A stretch of 21,773 nt of DNA, the filler included, from an uncultured virus (IMG/VR IMGVR_UViG_2061766007_000461) (Duplodnaviria; Heunggongvirae; Uroviricota; Caudoviricetes). It is 2 parts of one record of this genome, joined end to end, with 100 filler letters (N's around TTAATTAATTAA, not from the genome) between each part and the next. Parts side by side here need not be neighbours in the genome. Positions count along the whole stretch, not along the records: positions 10,616 to 21,773 come from IMGVR_UViG_2061766007_000461; 1 more part is not named here. One strand, given 5' to 3'. The notes below the pieces were generated by a model. The model did not search any database and was not told the DNA's origin. It worked only from the letters and a program-made list of their open reading frames with translations. Positions 7,392 through 21,773 of this stretch are shown piece after piece (the first letter of the stretch is position 1; the number at the start of each line of letters is the position of its first letter). A program made the translations under genes and the position numbers.

Positions 7392-8516
7392 AACAGCCGT
7401 CCATGATATTGACCTCATACGTTTTGTTCGCTTCCAGTGCTGTCGGGTCTGCACCAATCCACTTCATGGTCTGGCCTGTCGGCGGGGTAACCGTCAGCAC
7501 GGTAGCCGTGNNNNNNNNNNNNNNNNNNNNNNNNNNNNNNNNNNNNNNNNNNNNNNNNNNNNNNNNNNNNNNNNNNNNNNNNNNNNNNNNNNNNNNNNNN
7601 NNNNNNNGCTGATGGTTTCAGGGGCGTTGAGCATATCGCTGATTGCGGATTTTGCAGATTCGGTGTAGGTGCCGACAGCGTTACTGGACGCAGACTGCGT
7701 GGAGTCTCCGGCGGCTTTGGCAAGGCCATAGAAAACAGACCTGTGTTGTCTGTTTGGTGTTATAGGCTTATTTGTAGCTGTTCCCTCTTTGGTGTTTGTA
7801 TCATTCGCCGGGACTGTCTGTATTATCCCGGTATTTGAGATATTAACTCCATATGCCGTTTCACCAGTATACGCCTTTACAACGCCCGGAGCGGTTGAAC
7901 TTGCAAGTGGAATATTCGCCACGCCCTGACTGACAACGGAAGCTCCGTCTATCTGAACATCACTGACACCCCCGCCACCGCTGGCTTCCNNNNNNNNNNN
8001 NNNNNNNNNNNNNNNNNNNNNNNNNNNNNNNNNNNNNNNNNNNNNNNNNNNNNNNNNNNNNNNNNNNNNNNNNNNNNNNNNNNNNNNNNCATCACTGGAA
8101 ATTGGCAACAGTTTATCCGCGCTCCACGTCTTGTCGGTATCCCCGGTTCCGGCAGTATCGTCAATCAGGATGGTCGGATCTCCGTCCGCTCCATCATTGA
8201 CCGTCTGTGTCGTGGTGCCGTTTTTATCGGTAATGGTAATCGTCGCTACCTTCCCGGATTTGGTGACGGCTGCGGTAGGGGAAAAACCATCGTCGCCGGG
8301 GTCGCCCTTTGAACCGTCGGTTACAGTCGCTGTCGTGGTTCCGTTTTTATCCGTAACTGTTATTGTCGCAACATTGCCGGATTTGCTGACTGATGCAGCA
8401 GGGGAAAAACCATCGTCGCCGGGATCGCCTTTGTCGCCCTTCAGGCAATCCGCGCTCTGATACTGCCCATTCTCTTTTTTATATTTGAGCGTGGCCGGTT
8501 GAATCGTTATAGGCAT
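7392..8516 (-). CDS. Tail fibre protein with collagen-like and ~42-aa repeats (gapped)
   Basis: KGDKGDPGDDG; two copies of GFSP.A.V.KSG.VATIT.TDKNGTTT; IDDTAGTGDTDKTWSADKL; GGAGG SD. Continuity across three gaps is assumed. Confidence 0.75.
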
Positions 8517-8605
8517 ACCATCCACCTCCGGATCTCATAATCTCGTATTATATGCTTCTAACTGTTAAAAATTCTCGGTTCGCATTTCGGTCACAATTAC
8601 TAATC

Positions 8606-10515
8606 TCAGAATGTCCCATAAGTGTCATACACTTCCGACCAAAGCATGACAGCAACTTTGCCCTGTGTTACGTTTGTCTGAATAAGGTCAAGCACATCAC
8701 GCAGGAAAGTTTCCGTCACATCAACCCCTATCTCATGCATTACAAGCGTTACCCATACAGGGGTTTGATATGCTGTCCTTGTGTTCAGCCATGATTCAAA
8801 ATCATCAATATCATTATTGAAATTGTTCATCATGGTGAATGTCATGCCGTTGTATGGGGGATTTGTGCCGTAAGCATCGGAGAAGTCATAATACAAATAC
8901 AGATAAGGATCAAGTTTTTCCTTTAACGCTGCATCAGGTGTAGAATTTGCAACAGCAGTTCCCCTAATATGGATTCCGTTATCTTCAAAGGTTCTTTTAC
9001 TGTCAAGGAACAGTTCTTTGATTTTTGTCGCATCAGCAAACGTTGTGTCAGGATGTACTAAAACCNNNNNNNNNNNNNNNNNNNNNNNNNNNNNNNNNNN
9101 NNNNNNNNNNNNNNNNNNNNNNNNAACTGTCTTGTCGATGTTTTTCACACACGCAGCAACATCAAGCGGAAAACCATATTCTCCTGTGATAATCTTTGCA
9201 AACAGGTCAATATCTGTCCGCAGATCATCAACACGGAGAGATATTATCATTTTCGGATAAGTACCCCATGAGAAGTTTTTCGCAATAGCCATAAACCGCT
9301 GACGAAGTACACTATTCAAATAATCGTCATCGTTTTTGATTGCTGTGATATTCTGTGCGTTTTTCTGCACCTTGCTCCCCATGCTGATTCTTTCAAGTGC
9401 AACCGTGCTGTTAATGTTGCCTTGCACAACCGCATGAGTAGCACCAACAGGAACTGTGACTTCCTGCTCTGTAAATGTCACAGTTTGACCTGTGTAGCAA
9501 TCGTATGAAATAAACGTGCTTTCAGATGCGGAACTTGAATCATAGAACAGAATACCTGCAACAGATGCCTGTGATTTTGCTGTGACATACAATTTTTCAC
9601 CGGCAGTAACTTCAATTACCTGTGAACACTTTGCCTGATCGTATGTTCCATACTTGCCTGTCAGTTTATAGTATTTCCCTTCTGTCATTGTAAGCGCAAC
9701 AGAAGAATGTTCCTCTTCAAAAACTGCATCGTATGTATCATCAACCTTGTCCTCATCAATCTGCAAGGCTGCAATATCTGTTGCGTTTTTGTCTATCTTG
9801 TTTATTGTTTCACGTTTTTTCAGCGCAAGTGAACCGTCAATGTCACCCTGTACTATGCAATGTGTAGCACCTGTCGGAACTGTTACTTCCTGATTTGTGA
9901 ATGTTACGGTTTCCCCTGTATAGCAATCGTAAGAAACAAAGGTGCTTTCTGAAAGTGTATCCGAATTATAAAAGATGATTCCTGCAACTGCGCTGCGTGA
10001 TTTGGCAGTTACTAATACTTTACTTCCTGCCGTGACGGGAATAACCTGTGAGCATTTTGCCTGATTGTATGTCGAATGTTTCCCGGTTAATTTATAGTAT
10101 TCACCTTCACTTATTGTGAGTGAAACATCAACATTATTTGTCTGATAAATCGCATCGGAAAAGGAAGTTATTGCGCTCTGTAAATCGGTTAGTTCCGTAT
10201 AAGTAGGAACCTGTACACTCTGAGGAGGGGTCTCTGTAAACCAAACCTTATTCGCATGCTCCGTAGGCTGCAAGTCCTGTACTTTGACAATATCGTCGGC
10301 ATAATCTTCGGTGTCCGAAAGGATCTCGGCCTTGTCTGCCGTTGTCCAGTAGTCAACCCCACGAACAGGATCGTGACCGTCTTTTCCGTCATGCCCGTCG
10401 GCAACGTCAAACGTCTTCGCCCCTTCCTTGTCGGTTATAGTTACATTGTGGCCATCTGCGCTCGGTGTAACTTCAACAATAGGGGAGAACCCGTCAAACG
10501 CGCCGGATTCTTTCG
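8606..10515 (-). CDS. Tail fibre/receptor-binding protein with two beta-repeat domains and a C-terminal NodB-type polysaccharide deacetylase domain (5' end in gap)
   Basis: The frame stays open upstream of 10273 (GFSPIVEVT...DGKDGHDPVRGVDYWTTADKAEI). Duplicated EGxYYKLTG...VPxGATH domain; ISLRVDD, VLVH and TLVMHEI motifs. Confidence 0.8.
10162..10189. other. Putative recombinase site inside the tail gene
   Basis: AGGAAGTTATT-GCGCTC-TGTAAATCGGT; the left arm resembles TGTAAGTTATT of 5789-5816; encodes TDLQSAITS. Confidence 0.5.
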
Positions 10516-10615
10516 NNNNNNNNNNNNNNNNNNNNNNNNNNNNNNNNNNNNNNNNNNNNTTAATTAATTAANNNNNNNNNNNNNNNNNNNNNNNNNNNNN
10601 NNNNNNNNNNNNNNN

Positions 10616-10947
10616 CTCATGGGCGGGTAACTGTCCACGCCTGTGCCGGTCGGATTTTCTGCAAGATGAATCTGATACCGGAGTGCCTGATAGATGTTGT
10701 ACAGCATGTACCACTCTTCGTCTTTGTAGTTACCCGGTTCGTGATCCCGGAACATGATCCTGAACGCGGCTTTGAGTAATGGTTCCGATTCATTGCGCTT
10801 TTCGGCGTACTTATCATCTCCCAAGTCCAGAATGCAGTAGGGGAGCTGGTCGTACTGTTCCAGCTTCAGCCGCATCAGCAGCTCGACGGCCTTTAGGCAT
10901 TTCCGCGCCTGTTCACTCTCCATGGTCAGTGTGTACTTGATTTTCAT
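10616..10947 (-). CDS. Hypothetical phage protein (3' end in gap)
   Basis: AGGAGG SD; more than 110 open codons. Confidence 0.75.
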
Positions 10948-10957
10948 TCCTGCCCTC

Positions 10958-11020
10958 CTACGCGGTTTTGTATATCCAGATAATAATCGCCACCAACACT
11001 ACGATCCAGATCCACGACAT
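10958..11020 (-). CDS. 20-aa hydrophobic peptide MSWIWIVVLVAIIIWIYKTA
   Basis: AGGAGG SD 7 nt before the ATG; fills the space between flanking ORFs. Confidence 0.5.
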   Translation of the reverse strand: MSWIWIVVLVAIIIWIYKTA

Positions 11021-11039
11021 ATCATCCCTCCTCTGCCCC

Positions 11040-11513
11040 TTAAACGTGAGCGTATCCTATCCAACCGCACTCGCATTCATACTGATATTTGGCTGGATAT
11101 GATGTCAGTACGATATCCAACCGTTTGTAAATTTTCTTTCCGCACTTCGGGCATTCAATATCTGTTTTTATACGATTTGTATAGAACGAAGTATCCGGAT
11201 ATTGCTTTTCAATTTCTTCCCATTTCATTCGACTGTCTCCTTTTTTGTCAGACTTCCGTTCCCCGTCAGCACAATAAAATTCATCCGGTCTTACACCGTT
11301 GTAACTGTGCTTTTTGCATATAATTGCGTTGTCAAGCCATTTGAGAACTTCTGCATTTTTACAATCCTTGCACCGGACAACCTCTTCCATATTTTCCAGC
11401 AGTTCCAGAGCGGCTTTTGCTATGTTCTGCACCTCGCTGTCGCTGTGGTATGGTGCCCAGTCATCCTCCGTCAGACCGTCCAACCAACTCATAACAACAT
11501 TTATGTCTTGCAT
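11040..11513 (-). CDS. Cys-rich phage protein, possibly two fused small genes (RCKDCK module plus Zn ribbon from about 11228)
   Basis: VVRCKDCK...YCADGERK; internal AAAGGAG SD before MKWEEI; CPKCG...CECG. Confidence 0.7.
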   Translation of the reverse strand: MQDINVVMSWLDGLTEDDWAPYHSDSEVQNIAKAALELLENMEEVVRCKDCKNAEVLKWLDNAIICKKHSYNGVRPDEFYCADGERKSDKKGDSRMKWEEIEKQYPDTSFYTNRIKTDIECPKCGKKIYKRLDIVLTSYPAKYQYECECGWIGYAHV

Positions 11514-15832: not shown

Positions 15833-16246
15833 TCAGAACGGCAAATCAGGCAGTTCATCCGTTTCGATCTGTTCCATGCCGCTCTGTTGATCTACCTTCG
15901 GCGCAGGGGTTATTGATACGGCTTCCTTCTGTACACCCTGACTCAGAAACTCAACCTCTTGCGCTAAAACATCCATAGACGCACCGTGTTTGCCGCTCTG
16001 CGTCTCGTAAGTGCGTAGGCTGATAGAACCCACAACCGCAACCTTCCGGCCTTTTATGAGCCATTTACCGCAGTTTTCGCCCAATGCGTTCCAAGCCGAT
16101 ATCCGGAAAAAATCCGCTTCAGGCTGTCCTTCAACCTTGCGGCGGCGATTGACAGCCACCGTAAAAGTCGTAACTGTTTTCCCGTTCTGTGTTGTCCTTA
16201 CCTCCGGGTCTGCTGTAAGATTTCCAATAATGGTCAACCGATTCAT
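15833..16246 (-). CDS. ssb: Single-stranded DNA-binding protein
   Basis: MNRLTIIGNLTADPEVRTT...FTVAVNRR...KGRKVAVVG...DLPF. Confidence 0.97.
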   Translation of the reverse strand: MNRLTIIGNLTADPEVRTTQNGKTVTTFTVAVNRRRKVEGQPEADFFRISAWNALGENCGKWLIKGRKVAVVGSISLRTYETQSGKHGASMDVLAQEVEFLSQGVQKEAVSITPAPKVDQQSGMEQIETDELPDLPF

Positions 16247-16249
16247 TTT

Positions 16250-16777
16250 TCAATCCTCCCAATCTGCTAACATATATGGACAGAGCAGTCCATTGTCATA
16301 ATCGTCCAGCGGCGAATAAGATATCAGGAACTTGTACAGCTTGCATTTCCGGCAACTCACATCGTCTTCCGTACAGCCCTTGCACCTTTCCCGTGCGCTG
16401 TCGATCAGCGTCATAGCGTCTTCCCGTGTCATAATCACGTTCTGAGCGCAGTGAGCGGCTTTCGGAATAATCCGCACATCAAAGTCCTTCATTATTCCGT
16501 GGAGCGTGTGCGCCTGACTCTGTGTTGTAGTTCCTATCAGGTCATCGGATATGGCCTTGAAGGATATCATGGCCTTGCGCATCCGCTTCCTTCCGTCCGG
16601 AATAGCATCCAGCCTTTTCGCCAACGCCTTTTCCCCATCCGCTGTCGTACAGAGCATCGCCAGCAACCACTTCATAGCGTTCAGCTCATTCCGGGTCATC
16701 CGTACACAGTCTTTTTCATCCAGCCAAACCCGTTCAGGGTCTGGTTCCGGGCGTGTCCGTGCTACAATCAATCTCAT
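16250..16777 (-). CDS. Conserved phage protein with C-terminal Cys cluster (175 aa)
   Basis: GGGAGG SD; ATGA overlap; CKGC...CRKC...CPY. Confidence 0.8.
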   Translation of the reverse strand: MRLIVARTRPEPDPERVWLDEKDCVRMTRNELNAMKWLLAMLCTTADGEKALAKRLDAIPDGRKRMRKAMISFKAISDDLIGTTTQSQAHTLHGIMKDFDVRIIPKAAHCAQNVIMTREDAMTLIDSARERCKGCTEDDVSCRKCKLYKFLISYSPLDDYDNGLLCPYMLADWED

Positions 16778-17166
16778 ACCTCCCGTATCTCAATTCCAAG
16801 CCGCCAGCGCAGGAGCTTCTTTTTGAGCTTGTAAACGTCCGTCCTGCATCCTTTCACATCCTCAACAACCCTATTCCAGCCGCCAAGCTTGTTCTTTTCC
16901 AGATATTCAAAATCAGCCCGATAATATACAGCCCTCTGAGCTATTTTCCCGTTGCTTCCCTCAAGCGTTGGAATCAGGCAATATTTCGGCTGAAGCTCCA
17001 AGCACCGTATCAATCCAGCCCGTTCCATGTATTTCAGCTCAATATATCGGTCAGCTTCCTTCTTTGAGTCAAATGTTATTCCGTCAACAACTGTCTTCCG
17101 ATTTCCGTACTTGGATTGAACATCGCCCATACCATTGATAAAGCTTCCTGCTGTTTTTCGATCCAT
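16774..17166 (-). CDS. DUF1064-family putative endonuclease
   Basis: SKYGNRKTVVDGITFDSKKEA...YRADFEY...VVEDVKG. Confidence 0.9.
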   Translation of the reverse strand: MDRKTAGSFINGMGDVQSKYGNRKTVVDGITFDSKKEADRYIELKYMERAGLIRCLELQPKYCLIPTLEGSNGKIAQRAVYYRADFEYLEKNKLGGWNRVVEDVKGCRTDVYKLKKKLLRWRLGIEIREV

Positions 17167-18190: not shown

Positions 18191-18408
18191 TTATGCTTGA
18201 CCAAGTTCTTCACGCTTTTGCTTTTCCTGTTCCTCTTGACACATCTGGACGAAATTTTGCATCACAATCTCATCCAAGCCTTCATAGCTCCGCTGTCCTT
18301 CGTAATGCGACCAGTCCTTTTTCCCGGATGACTTCCCGGAGGAATGACTGAATGTTTCCCGCTTTTCCCACGTTCTCACAGCGGCTTTCCAGTCCTTCAT
18401 CGGCTGGG
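18191..18408 (-). CDS. C-terminal fragment of a phage replication protein
   Basis: PMKDWKAAVRTWEKR motif typical of replisome-organiser C-termini. Confidence 0.75.
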
Positions 18409-18418
18409 NNNNNNNNNN

Positions 18419-18552
18419 TGGCAGTTCTCTCCAAGCTCGCGCCACGCGGAGATATTGAAAAAGTCTGCCTCCTGATTCTGGGTCTGGCTGTTCTTCCGTC
18501 TGTTCACGGCGACCGTGAAACTGCATACTGAGATGCCTGTCTGCGTCGCCCG
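18419..18552 (-). CDS. ssb: Internal N-terminal fragment of the second SSB
   Basis: RATQTGISVCSFTVAVNRR...ADFFNISAWRELGENC. Confidence 0.85.
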
Positions 18553-18627
18553 NNNNNNNNNNNNNNNNNNNNNNNNNNNNNNNNNNNNNNNNNNNNNNNN
18601 NNNNNNNNNNNNNNNNNNNNNNNNNNN

Positions 18628-18943
18628 GCCCGTCTTCTCATAGGCCTCATCCACGATTTCCTGATCTTCGATACATGTCACTACCTGCCGGTCAATCTCT
18701 TTCAACAGGTCAGCGGCCTTGTCTGCGTCCCATCCGTGATGCTCGCACATGGTGATGAGGATCGCGGCGTATATCACGTGAAAACAGAACTGCTCCGTGT
18801 CCTCTTTACCTTGCGTCCATCCGTCCTTGTGAGCGTCCTGCAAATCATCCAGCGTGATGCCGTTCCGGAAGAGCATCGCCTGTTTCCGTTCCGTGGAGGT
18901 CGCAGCAACCTCCATCAGGAACTTTTTATCATTCCGGGCCTTT
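18628..18943 (-). CDS. Hypothetical phage protein fragment
   Basis: Open between two gaps; LFRNGITLDDL...YAAILI. Confidence 0.7.
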
Positions 18944-18987
18944 NNNNNNNNNNNNNNNNNNNNNNNNNNNNNNNNNNNNNNNNNNNN

Positions 18988-19361
18988 ATCTCGATCCCCT
19001 TGAAATAGCGCATCAGCTTTTTCTTCAGCCGGTACAGATCGGTCTTGGTGGCCTCGCTCTTCGCATCCTCGACAACCAGATTGCCCACCCGGTCGAAGTA
19101 AACGAAATCTGCGATATAGTTCACGGCCCGCTCGACAACCCTCCCGGATGCGTCAACCTGTCTCGGCAGCAACTCAAACTTGACCTGTCGATCCAGATCC
19201 CGGATGTGTCCAACCCGCTCCATCAGCTTCAGCTCGGCCCATCTCTCGGCCTCATGCTTGCTGTCGAAGCTGATCCCGTCCAGCTCTGTTTTCTGGCTGT
19301 GATACTTGCTCTGCTTCTGGCCGAGCAGCCGGTTCGCCTCGGATTTTGATAATCTGATCAT
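18988..19361 (-). CDS. Second DUF1064-family putative endonuclease
   Basis: SKYHSQKTELDGISFDSKHEA...YIADFVY...VVEDAKS; GGAGG SD; stop in a gap. Confidence 0.9.
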
Positions 19362-19469
19362 CGCTTGCCTCCGGAGACCATATTGGGATGCCAAACAGGT
19401 TGCACCAAACCCCGTGCTGTGTACGCTTGCGCCGTGCGTACTCGCAGCCGGAGCAGTGCTTCCCACACT

Positions 19470-19931
19470 TCAGGGGCTCAGTTCGATACATGACGTTCTG
19501 ATGAACCCGCGAGTGGTCACGGCCCATTCGGAAGTGATCGCCCACACAGTCAATTCCGCACATGTCCGCGCCCACGCTTTTCGCGGGCCATTCACCCATC
19601 TCCGGCAGGCAACGCGTCCGTTGGCGCAAATGATGTACGGATCGCCGTCCGGGATGATCTCAGGTTCCTCAAACACCACATATCCGGCATATACCCAGCC
19701 TTCGCTCTCTTCGAAGCTCAGGCCTGTGCAGTGCAGGAAACCGCCTCTTTTTTTGCCGTCCGTCCGGATCTCGTCTCCCAGCTCCAACCGCCCGAGCGCC
19801 GGGGTCGCTTTTGAGGCCCCGGCCCGGGCAAACACGTAGGAGTCAGGCTGGCAGAAGATCCATGCACCCTGCGCTGACGCGCTCTGAATGATAATCAGCA
19901 TCAGGATGAACATGATTGCCCACTTCTTCAC
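19470..19931 (-). CDS. Signal-peptide protein with SH3b-like domains
   Basis: MKKWAIMFILMLIIIQSASA signal; VFARAGASK...LGRL...GWVYAGYV; second repeat ending WAVTTRGFI. Confidence 0.7.
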   Translation of the reverse strand: MKKWAIMFILMLIIIQSASAQGAWIFCQPDSYVFARAGASKATPALGRLELGDEIRTDGKKRGGFLHCTGLSFEESEGWVYAGYVVFEEPEIIPDGDPYIICANGRVACRRWVNGPRKAWARTCAELTVWAITSEWAVTTRGFIRTSCIELSP

Positions 19932-20696
19932 TATCCAACCCCCGCTTTCGATTCGTGTTCTGCTTTCCTGCGTTCACGCGCCTCCCGCATGCGGTCAACG
20001 TCTTCATGGGAGTCCACCACATACAACCCTTGGCCTTTTGCCGCAAACCGCATCGCGGTCAGCTCCTCGGCCTCTTCCGGGGTCGTTACGTGCTCGAATT
20101 GCCAGTCATCAAAGATCTTGGTTACGTACTTCACGAGGTTCAGGGCGTGGTTCTCAGCAGCCGTCTTGATTGCCAGTGCTACCATGCCGGGAGAAAGCCC
20201 GAAGAGCTGGGCCCGGGTGGCGATTTGTGCGATCTCTGCCGGTGCAGCCTTTCTCCCACACTGAGCCTCTACCGCTGTTTCGACAGCAGATTTCCATTCC
20301 GTCTCTTCCTCGCGCGCGCCCGCACTGTAGTTGTCTTCATCATCATCTTCATCATCAATATATTTCTGATTCTGATTCTGATTCTTATTGTCAGCATTTG
20401 CTTCGGTTTGCTTGTTTCCGGAAGCAAAATAAGCATTTGCTTGATTTGCTTCATTTTGCTTCTTCGGGCGTTGCATGCCGCCCTTGCGCCCAGCCTCAGA
20501 GCGTTTGCTTNNNNNNNNNNNNNNNNNNNNNNNNNNAAATCGCGAAGCTGCCTACCAATGTGCTGGGCAAGTCCGGTTCTTTGCCTGTCATGGTGTATGA
20601 CCATAGTGCCTTGACAAGTTGCCCGGCCTCTTCATCAGAGAGGCTCAGGAACGCAGCCCCCCACACGTTGCGAGCCTTGAACCAATCTTTCATCAT
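19931..20696 (-). CDS. Phage replication initiator (DUF6291-like N-terminus, DnaD-like C-terminus), gapped
   Basis: LSDEEAGQLVKAL; KRSEAGRKGG; KNQNQNQ linker; VKYVTKIFDDW...VTTPEEA. Confidence 0.85.
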
Positions 20697-21067
20697 CACG
20701 CCACCTTTTCGAAGCCCGGAATCAGGCTGACTATTAACGCACCCGTCAGATCCTTTGTGCAATTCAGGTACTCACCAATGAGGCCCTGAGGGAATCCGGC
20801 TTTCAGAATCCCCAACATCTTGCTGCCGTTCTCAATCCTCTTGGCCCGGCTCTCACAGACCGTCGTGAGTTTCCAGTCCCCGCCGGGAGTTATTTTCATG
20901 ATCCGGCGTTCCCGGTTGATGGAGATATGGACGCTTGTCACGCCTTCACCCATCAGCTCCATCGCTCCGGCGCTCAGGTAGAGGATCCGGGGTGTGAACC
21001 GGATATATTCCTTGACTCCCGCTGGCGGGTGATACCGCCTCTTGTGTGGCTCTGCCTTAACGAACAT
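20696..21067 (-). CDS. Hypothetical phage protein (123 aa)
   Basis: AAGGAGG SD before ATG 21067; stop overlaps the next start. Confidence 0.75.
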   Translation of the reverse strand: MFVKAEPHKRRYHPPAGVKEYIRFTPRILYLSAGAMELMGEGVTSVHISINRERRIMKITPGGDWKLTTVCESRAKRIENGSKMLGILKAGFPQGLIGEYLNCTKDLTGALIVSLIPGFEKVA

Positions 21068-21107
21068 TGTTGATACCTCCTTGTGTAATATGGAATCCAT
21101 GCCTTGA

Positions 21108-21773
21108 TTTTCGCTGCTCCGCTTTGCCTCTGCCCTGTCTCTCCATGCAATGCCGTTTCAACTCTTGGCCGTGCTATGCCATATCAATGCCGCTCCTCGC
21201 CTTGCCGCAGCATTGCTCTTCTTTTCTGTTCTATGCGTTGCCCCAGCCCCGCTCAGCCCTTCCGTTGCAATTCGGTTCGTGGCCCTGCCTTTCCAATGCC
21301 TTGCGTCTCATTTCCGATGCGTATCAAACCACTGCCTTTCCGAGGCCCTGCCGCTCTATTCCATTCACTTCCCCCGGCCCGGCGAATCTCCGCGCTGCTA
21401 TGCCGGTGCTGATCCTAACTGAGCNNNNNNNNNNNNNNNNNNNNNNNNNNNNNNNNNNNNNNNNNNNNNNNNNNNNNNNNNNNNNNNNNNNNNNNNNNNN
21501 NNNNNNNNTCAATTCCATTGCGTTACTTGTCCAATCGCTGCTTTGCCAATGCTTATCATTTCCAATCGTTGCTTCTCCGCCGCGTGGCATGTCTATGCAA
21601 TTCCTCCGCATTGCAAAACTCTTCTGTTCCTTTCCGCTGCGGTTCTGTACGCTGCTTTTCCGCTGCTGCTCAGCTCGACACCCTTCCATGGCCGTGCATT
21701 TCCCATCGACTCCCCGCATCTCCGCTGCCCATCGCATTCTCTCTGCACCATGCACATCCCATGCCCTTCGGCT
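21108..21773 (-). repeat. Degenerate pentamer-lattice array with 5n+1-nt units
   Basis: The plus strand parses into NN-T-(G/T)-C-like pentamers with a C at almost every fifth base and one extra base per unit. Runs off the right edge. Strand assumed from neighbouring genes. Confidence 0.85.

Follow-up and report, generated by a model that had tools for sequence, protein, structure and literature searches.

VIPR systems, CRISPR relatives described only in 2026, consist of a lone minimal RAMP protein, Vipr, with an RRM core, a G-loop and a thumb, and of vrRNAs built from YNNGG steps (bioRxiv 10.64898/2026.04.26.720920, 10.64898/2026.04.26.720927), and in the text of these preprints only the GGY/NN type II is worked out. 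The vrRNAs of VIPR are small RNAs that co-purify with Vipr, and targets are recognised in a gapped manner, in type II by a 1-nt skip rule. Seven types are listed there, together with the alternative repeats NNNGG, YNNNG and NNNNG, and some vrRNA arrays are described as 'staggered', with guides offset by 1 nt, each guide beginning where its predecessor ends (bioRxiv 10.64898/2026.04.26.720920). According to the VIPR structure preprint, residue R138 of the Vipr protein of phage SUSP1 contacts the second G of the repeat. Related preprint texts add that solo vrRNAs are known for satellites and for VIPR-null phages of the SUSP1 family (bioRxiv 10.64898/2026.10.15.759431), and that an entropy-periodicity survey recovered 21 non-canonical VIPR array clusters, comprising 6,318 sequences, near Vipr-like folds (bioRxiv 10.64898/2026.10.21.760802).

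Here we examine a pentamer-coded locus at one end of a 21,773-nt stretch of DNA, filler included, from an uncultured virus (the window). We consider it very likely, by analogy with its relatives, that positions 21108-21773 represent a vrRNA array forming the distal part of a VIPR locus in a temperate phage of gut Clostridia, with the vipr gene lying beyond 21773. The locus is made up as follows:

21108..21424, minus strand: predicted guide array, promoter-distal part; 61 pentamers in 12 units (one partial), in the format of 83 unique arrays found beside Vipr-like genes.
21425..21508, no strand: masked stretch of 84 N inside the array, with the array register on both sides; contigs of runs X1, X3 and X5 bridge it.
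21509..21773, minus strand: predicted guide array, promoter-proximal part; 50 pentamers in 10 units (two partial), reaching the last base of the window.

A five-base rhythm had been claimed from 21108 onwards in a sequence-only reading, and direct measurement bears this out. Base identity at lag 5 is 0.47 in 21108-21425 and 0.42 in 21510-21773, compared with 0.23-0.26 in the flanks (20530-21100 and 19000-20500), and no other 150-nt stretch in the whole window exceeds 0.375. Lag-3 identity inside the array is 0.24-0.26, showing no 3-nt periodicity. Dynamic-programming parsing of the plus strand, with 200 shuffles as control, yielded 61 + 50 = 111 visible pentamers of the form NN-T-K-C, with scores of 110.5 for the 61-pentamer part (shuffles 43.2 +/- 4.5, maximum 56.5) and 82.0 for the 50-pentamer part (shuffles 35.5 +/- 4.4, maximum 46), roughly 10-15 standard deviations over the shuffles. 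As proposed earlier, position 5 is nearly always C (109/111) and position 4 is G or T (104/111); these two frequencies are partly by construction because the parse score favours K-C at positions 4-5, a bias of which the lag-5 autocorrelation and the shuffles are free. Position 3, previously read as mostly T, does carry T in the majority of pentamers (64/111) but is only weakly fixed.

The rhythm is punctuated at regular intervals. All 20 register slips on the plus strand consist of C only (19 single C and one CC), are spaced 21-36 nt apart and shift the register by +1. The earlier suggestion that all spacings are 1 mod 5 thus holds for these 21-36 nt slips and fails for two spacings adjoining the CC slip; most of the unit ends proposed with it agree with the parse, in which those near 21237, 21563 and 21703 move to 21242, 21578 and 21723. 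Read on the minus strand, each step is G-M-N-N-N (M = C or A), with second-base counts of C 55, A 49, T 6 and G 1 among the 111 pentamers, and the steps are grouped into units of 4-7, each opening with an extra G. Two bases are therefore fixed and three vary, which replaces the constant triplet and variable dinucleotide of the sequence-only reading. The minus-strand RNA has no significant fold (z -0.89), and this absence fits a guide RNA because guides are expected to be unfolded. Our scan of 20500-21773 returned no promoter-like site, and terminator-like hairpins are absent from the minus strand and number two on the plus strand, no more than in shuffles; Rfam gave no match in 20000-21773. 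We conclude that 21108-21773 is a non-coding array and that its five-base rhythm is real, and the array presumably continues through the masked stretch 21425..21508 for about 16 pentamers. One relative from another bovine sequencing run carries a 5-nt insertion at 21307, one whole step, with the register kept.

Arrays of this format are widespread among phages. A degenerate pattern describing two consecutive 26-nt units, TKCC(NNNKC)4NNTKCC(NNNKC)4NNTKCC, had no matches in 100 shuffles of the window and matched IMG/VR contigs at least 120 times; each of the 119 IMG/VR loci examined has a periodic array, 100-1000 nt long. On the G strand, 83 unique arrays with 6183 pentamers define the family step: G comes first, C (56-70%) or A (22-38%) second, and the remaining three bases are nearly free; the detector favours K-C, so that frequencies at the first two bases of the step (g1, g2) are partly by construction, a restriction that does not apply to the slip base, the unit length or g3-g5. 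Units are mostly 5-7 steps long in arrays selected by the pattern and in those selected through the partner protein described below alike. The slip base is G in 992 of 1101 slips in the array-selected set and in 791 of 885 slips in the protein-selected set, and the two sets also match in logo and unit lengths. Family units typically open with a G-M-A step (g3 = A in 81%) and mostly close with GCAAN (g2 = C in 91%, g4 = A in 79%). The window array follows this grammar, with last-step pentamers that are less conserved than the GCAAN of its relatives. About 10 IMG/VR loci carry two arrays 700-900 nt apart (L002, L004, L010, L021, L043, L053, L055 and L079 among them). Terminator-like hairpins near 148 family arrays number 30 on the G-strand 3' side, 21 of these on the other strand, and three on the 5' side, a placement that gives a weak hint of array direction.

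The partner of these arrays was sought by clustering ORFs within 4 kb of them at 80 IMG/VR loci with long flanks, of which L002 and L003 are overlapping pieces of one contig. In 79 of the 80 the array has a gene for a protein of about 208 amino acids next to it, without exception on the G strand and at a median distance of 28 nt; in L077, the sole locus without it, the array sits at a contig end. Followed along the G strand, the gene precedes the array in 41 loci and comes after it in 33; in five more (L023, L032 and L044, for example) two arrays enclose it, much as guides do in the published layout of SUSP1. The array pairs of L002 and L043 have the gene outside them. Six IMG/VR loci (L005, at 10468-11106, and five others) have an ORF of about 205 amino acids, without a Pfam match, inserted between gene and array, and in the other IMG/VR loci the two are less than 100 nt apart.

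Several comparisons point to the same fold for this protein. It matches no Pfam family, and its invariant C-terminal GxGQWRNxxxG motif corresponds to the RAMP glycine-rich loop. When a profile of 19 representatives was searched against the PDB, type VII CRISPR Cas7 (E 0.0015) and Csm4 (E 0.03) were returned. The AlphaFold (AF2) model (pLDDT 84.4, pTM 0.79) gave 199 PDB matches in Foldseek at E <= 0.001, the best being type VII Cas7 (8z4j_J, E 3.6e-8), and those listed are almost all type VII, type III (Csm/Cmr) and Cas7-11 CRISPR effector complexes. On the strength of this model and these searches, we identify the protein as a Cas7-like RAMP.

To relate it to Vipr itself we turned to the genome of SUSP1 (NC_028808.2), where agp039, a gene of 195 aa, and another of 146 aa lie between GGYNN tracts. 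We take agp039 to be Vipr because its product has every residue named for SUSP1 Vipr in the structure preprint: H17, E71, M72, R138, C173, D177, W178 and R179 are all present. In hhalign the ~208-aa family aligns with agp039 over 173 columns (probability 83%, E 8.8e-6), with the G-loop GIGQWRNSGKGRF set against GVGDWRPRFGRF of SUSP1 agp039 and with SUSP1 D177-W178-R179 aligned with the invariant Q-W-R of the family. The position of SUSP1 R138 is occupied by an invariant Glu (E155 of L005). By this alignment, at an hhalign probability of only 83%, we take the ~208-aa protein to be a Vipr homologue.

Linkage between protein and array also holds in the reverse direction. A search of GTDB species genomes in which the protein was the sole query yielded 169 relatives, most of them from metagenome-assembled genomes of gut Clostridia, and among the best 80 of these 169 loci a same-strand array was called in 70 and an opposite-strand array in 2, with the detector finding no array in 10. 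Gene and array are less than 200 nt apart in 63 of the 80; of these, 51 have the array downstream of the gene, 8 have it upstream and 4 have arrays to either side. The linked RAMP gene anticipated in the sequence-only reading is thus recovered from either end, beside the array in 79/80 array-selected loci and with an array in 70/80 protein-selected ones. Its expected position upstream of the array is the one seen in 55 of the 63 protein-selected loci with an array within 200 nt, though none is visible in the window. The relatives' loci border on the lysogeny switch (cI-like repressor, integrase and antirepressor) at one end and on the ERF/SSB module at the other, and their SSB homologues have the same side and strand relative to the array as in the window.

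In the window itself, every gene in the vicinity of the array is encoded on the minus strand, and the first two after it are these:

20696..21070, minus strand: ORF of 124 amino acids with an AGGAGG ribosome-binding site, its start 37 nt downstream of the array.
19931..20762, minus strand: DnaD-like replication initiator in two ORF pieces split by an N run (Pfam DnaB_2, 2.3e-11; PHROG 186, DnaD-like helicase loader, 1.4e-9).

The 124-aa ORF is probably co-transcribed with the array, since no terminator separates them. It has no Pfam or PHROG match and only five homologues, all metagenomic, with none in IMG/VR, GTDB genomes or JGI metagenomes; its AF2 model (pLDDT 77) has no PDB match in Foldseek at E <= 0.001. 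An AbrB-like DNA binder had been guessed from its sequence, for which Pfam, PHROGs and Foldseek provide no backing. This ORF is no conserved partner of the array system. The replication module downstream of the array begins with the DnaD-like gene, whose protein has only three weak IMG/VR matches; we regard this gene as context rather than as part of the system. Reading away from the array, the order is the 124-aa ORF, the DnaD-like initiator, two DUF1064 genes, SSB and, far off, an integrase. The replication module holds two DUF1064 and two SSB-like genes at 15833-16246, 16774-17166, 18397-18915 and 18915-19466, all on the minus strand, a doubling that suggests a duplicated or mosaic module. 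Further away, a 343-aa protein encoded at 7494-8525 on the minus strand has collagen-flanked surface repeats (Pfam CFSR, 7.4e-8). The window contains 25 masked N runs in all. The surroundings of the array are the early or replication module of a temperate phage, and the phage location that characterizes VIPR is seen here in the integrase, SSB, DUF1064 and DnaD-like initiator genes. Sequencing-run labels give the phage a bovine-gut origin.

The array stops where the assembly stops. The window is probably a whole contig, because a Logan contig of the likely source run extends 14 nt past 21773 and then ends. A second short Logan contig of that run shares only the 35-nt unit at 21627-21661 and has other sequence on both sides of it; this too is pentamer-coded, and the sample therefore contains more array sequence. 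Units common to several contigs probably broke the assembly. An exact 54-mer from the window end is absent from IMG/VR, and the phage collection contained no DNA or protein match to the window queries. Within the visible 21.7 kb no vipr homologue was found (best tblastn E 0.039), so that vipr is linked to the phage in the window by analogy only. The common order in relatives is vipr, array, early genes; the window shows the last two of these, and its contig ends at the place where vipr should follow, which is why we read it as the distal part of a VIPR locus.

The main rival reading, which we consider improbable, is a solo, or orphan, vrRNA array: the phage would carry guides but lack a vipr gene, and would borrow or misdirect the Vipr protein that a co-infecting phage supplies. 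Such solo vrRNAs have been reported, as far as the text of that preprint goes (bioRxiv 10.64898/2026.10.15.759431), and the 21.7-kb window does lack a vipr gene. What makes us doubt it is that the gene stands beside the array in all 79 array-selected loci with both flanks visible, and that the window array is itself cut on the side where vipr usually sits. We therefore continue with a vrRNA array whose own vipr would lie just beyond the contig end.

How the arrays change over time provides a further view of their nature. Among 191 pairs of units differing by one to three bases we counted 363 substitutions, distributed as 3% at g1, 14% at g2, 26% at g3, 21% at g4 and 36% at g5, so that what relatives keep is the 5-nt register and not a protein frame, as the sequence-only reading had foreseen. 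Unit content is lost quickly: phages with Vipr proteins at least 99.5% identical have on average 0.67 of their units in common (15 pairs), those at 97-99.5% have 0.31 (86 pairs, 15 of them with none) and those at 90-94% only 0.014, with none in 36 of 38 pairs. Both whole-unit replacement and point changes occur. By these comparisons the arrays turn over far faster than the vipr gene.

This pattern bears on whether the array might instead act as DNA, as an origin or partition site at which a protein binds a fixed motif in phase with the duplex. The geometry is suggestive: five pentamers and one base make 26 bp, a mean step of about 5.2 bp or half a helical turn, units recur at intervals of 21, 26 and 31 bp, or nearly 2, 2.5 and 3 turns, and the array lies just upstream of a replication initiator gene. 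However, this class of array is tied to a Cas7-like RNA-binding protein, with the G strand as the coding strand (70 vs 2), and its free positions change fast, with whole units swapped between near-identical phages, which fits guides and not iterons. We reject the half-helical-turn idea because of the strand-specific RAMP linkage, a duplex site giving no reason for strand bias, and consider it very improbable. That the stretch is coding or degenerate coding sequence is next to inconceivable: a 235-aa ORF (21067-21771, plus strand) is open through the array to the window end, but this is a by-product of an A-poor strand with few stop codons, and, in keeping with the denial of a codon origin in the sequence-only reading, lag-3 identity is 0.24-0.26 against 0.42-0.47 at lag 5 and the frame shifts every 21-36 nt, while substitutions in relatives follow the pentamer register. 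A guide-RNA array read from the minus strand, by comparison, agrees with both the register conservation in relatives and the same-strand RAMP linkage.

We also attempted to decode what the guides would target, using eight rules in which either NN (g4-g5) or NNN (g3-g5) is read with skips of 0-3 nt, and order-shuffled units as the control. Exact 6-step words showed no excess over shuffled units in 2.6 Mb of local loci plus the window, a set to which competitor genomes do not belong, and junction-spanning words showed none over order-shuffled units in a small local set likewise free of competitor genomes. Seed-and-extend matching with up to 2 mismatches in a 3.7 Mb local set, again free of competitor genomes, gave no excess over shuffled units either. 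The only decoded matches (NNN, skip 2) were to other arrays. As competitor genomes fall outside the 2.6-3.7 Mb local set, these target searches are without power. Stop triplets are mildly depleted among the NNN (105 observed vs 148 expected), a shortfall that tracks the general lack of TA, and for this reason we draw no inference about a codon-like NNN signature.

Taken together, our results favour a mechanism modelled on the VIPR of SUSP1. The array would be transcribed from the minus strand, in the direction of the replication genes that follow it, and the RNA would be processed into its units. Each step pairs its anchor, G followed by C or A, with three free bases, units contain four to seven such steps, and an extra G closes every unit, which gives n+1 G anchors around n variable segments; the +1 slips arise from this extra G. 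By homology with SUSP1, the lone Cas7-like Vipr would polymerise along the RNA with one protomer per step, holding the anchor bases and leaving the free ones exposed for gapped base pairing to DNA from competing phages or satellites, and the outcome would be transcriptional silencing of these targets. For the vipr gene of the phage in the window the most likely place is immediately upstream, past 21773 on the minus strand, the assembly having broken inside the repetitive array.

The anchor positions invite a more speculative proposal. Glutamate is a hydrogen-bond acceptor, and the invariant Glu that stands in place of R138 could select the amino bases A and C at the second anchor position. We tentatively suggest, while thinking it rather unlikely, that the VIPR branch of gut Clostridia phages uses a different recognition code, in which every step has two anchors, G and an amino base (A or C), and three bases that are read, and in which guides of 5-7 steps approximate one turn of a six-subunit Vipr filament, each guide having its own extra G anchor and the change of anchor being explained by the Glu at R138. 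If this were true, the arrays would pack dozens of 15-21-nt specificities into a few hundred bases.

The window array belongs to a branch that is common in phages of gut Clostridia, with at least 120 IMG/VR contigs and 169 GTDB species genomes, and whose grammar (G-M-NNN steps, +1 G punctuation, conserved first and last steps) and decoding rule are undescribed in the text of the VIPR preprint, figures aside. The window contributes one more, incomplete example; analysis of the family as a whole yields a clear grammar, open to testing, for a second VIPR code, and points to one residue as a candidate determinant of specificity. The interpretation offered in the sequence-only reading is supported in substance, with the adjustment that, of its likeness to VIPR, the RAMP protein and the pentamer RNA stand and the parallel system gives way to membership in VIPR itself.

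Comparison with known systems makes the basis of that membership explicit. VIPR type II, represented by Escherichia phage SUSP1 and a P. fulva prophage, combines Vipr, vrRNA and vap1. Like it, the family described here has a lone Cas7-like RAMP of about 200 amino acids, homologous over its full length, and an array of 5-nt steps with fixed G anchors and hypervariable bases that adjoins the gene on the same strand; it is phage-borne and comes without a CRISPR array and without adaptation genes. The tandem pentanucleotide repeats with fixed anchors and hypervariable bases are present in the window (fixed G in 109/111), and same-strand adjacency to vipr is seen in its relatives (70 vs 2 calls, median 28 nt). 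There are also differences. Type II steps are GGY with two free bases, whereas the canonical GGY/NN consensus is absent here and the consensus is G-M-NNN, an anchor with three free bases; this does not exclude VIPR membership, because the preprint text admits 'a related consensus' (NNNGG, YNNNG, NNNNG). Type II vrRNAs are about 100 nt long, with 9-16 repeats and a folded tail, whereas our units have 4-7 steps in 21-36 nt with an extra G, run consecutively with no conserved 3' tail and no significant fold, and fill family arrays of up to about 900 nt with dozens of units. The vap1 neighbour of type II has no counterpart, there being no conserved accessory (vap) gene beside vipr in the 80 loci, and the residue aligned with SUSP1 R138 is an invariant Glu in the ~208-aa family.

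Closer parallels are found among the less canonical arrays. Read in tandem as G-Y-NNN, the published YNNNG repeats likewise have one G, one semi-fixed base and three free bases, and the 1-nt guide offset of the 'staggered' arrays fits the +1 punctuation of the window array; the second base in the window is C or A and not a pyrimidine, however, and as the comparison is one of text descriptions, it does not establish identity with a published type. The non-canonical clusters of the entropy-periodicity survey are also 5-nt periodic, with non-GGY fixed motifs near Vipr-like folds, but theirs are GAC/NN, CAC/NN, WGT/NN and TGH/NN, fixed triplets repeated about 10 times, and G-M-NNN with +1 punctuation is not named among the motifs in the text of that preprint (bioRxiv 10.64898/2026.10.21.760802). 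More distantly, class 1 CRISPR effectors use a 6-nt rather than a 5-nt step and rely on a repeat-spacer array, Cas5, Cas6, a large subunit and an adaptation module, all of which are missing here; their backbone, a Cas7/Csm3 filament on crRNA, nevertheless shares with the family the fold of the partner protein and the underlying plan of one protomer per fixed RNA step with flipped-out bases.
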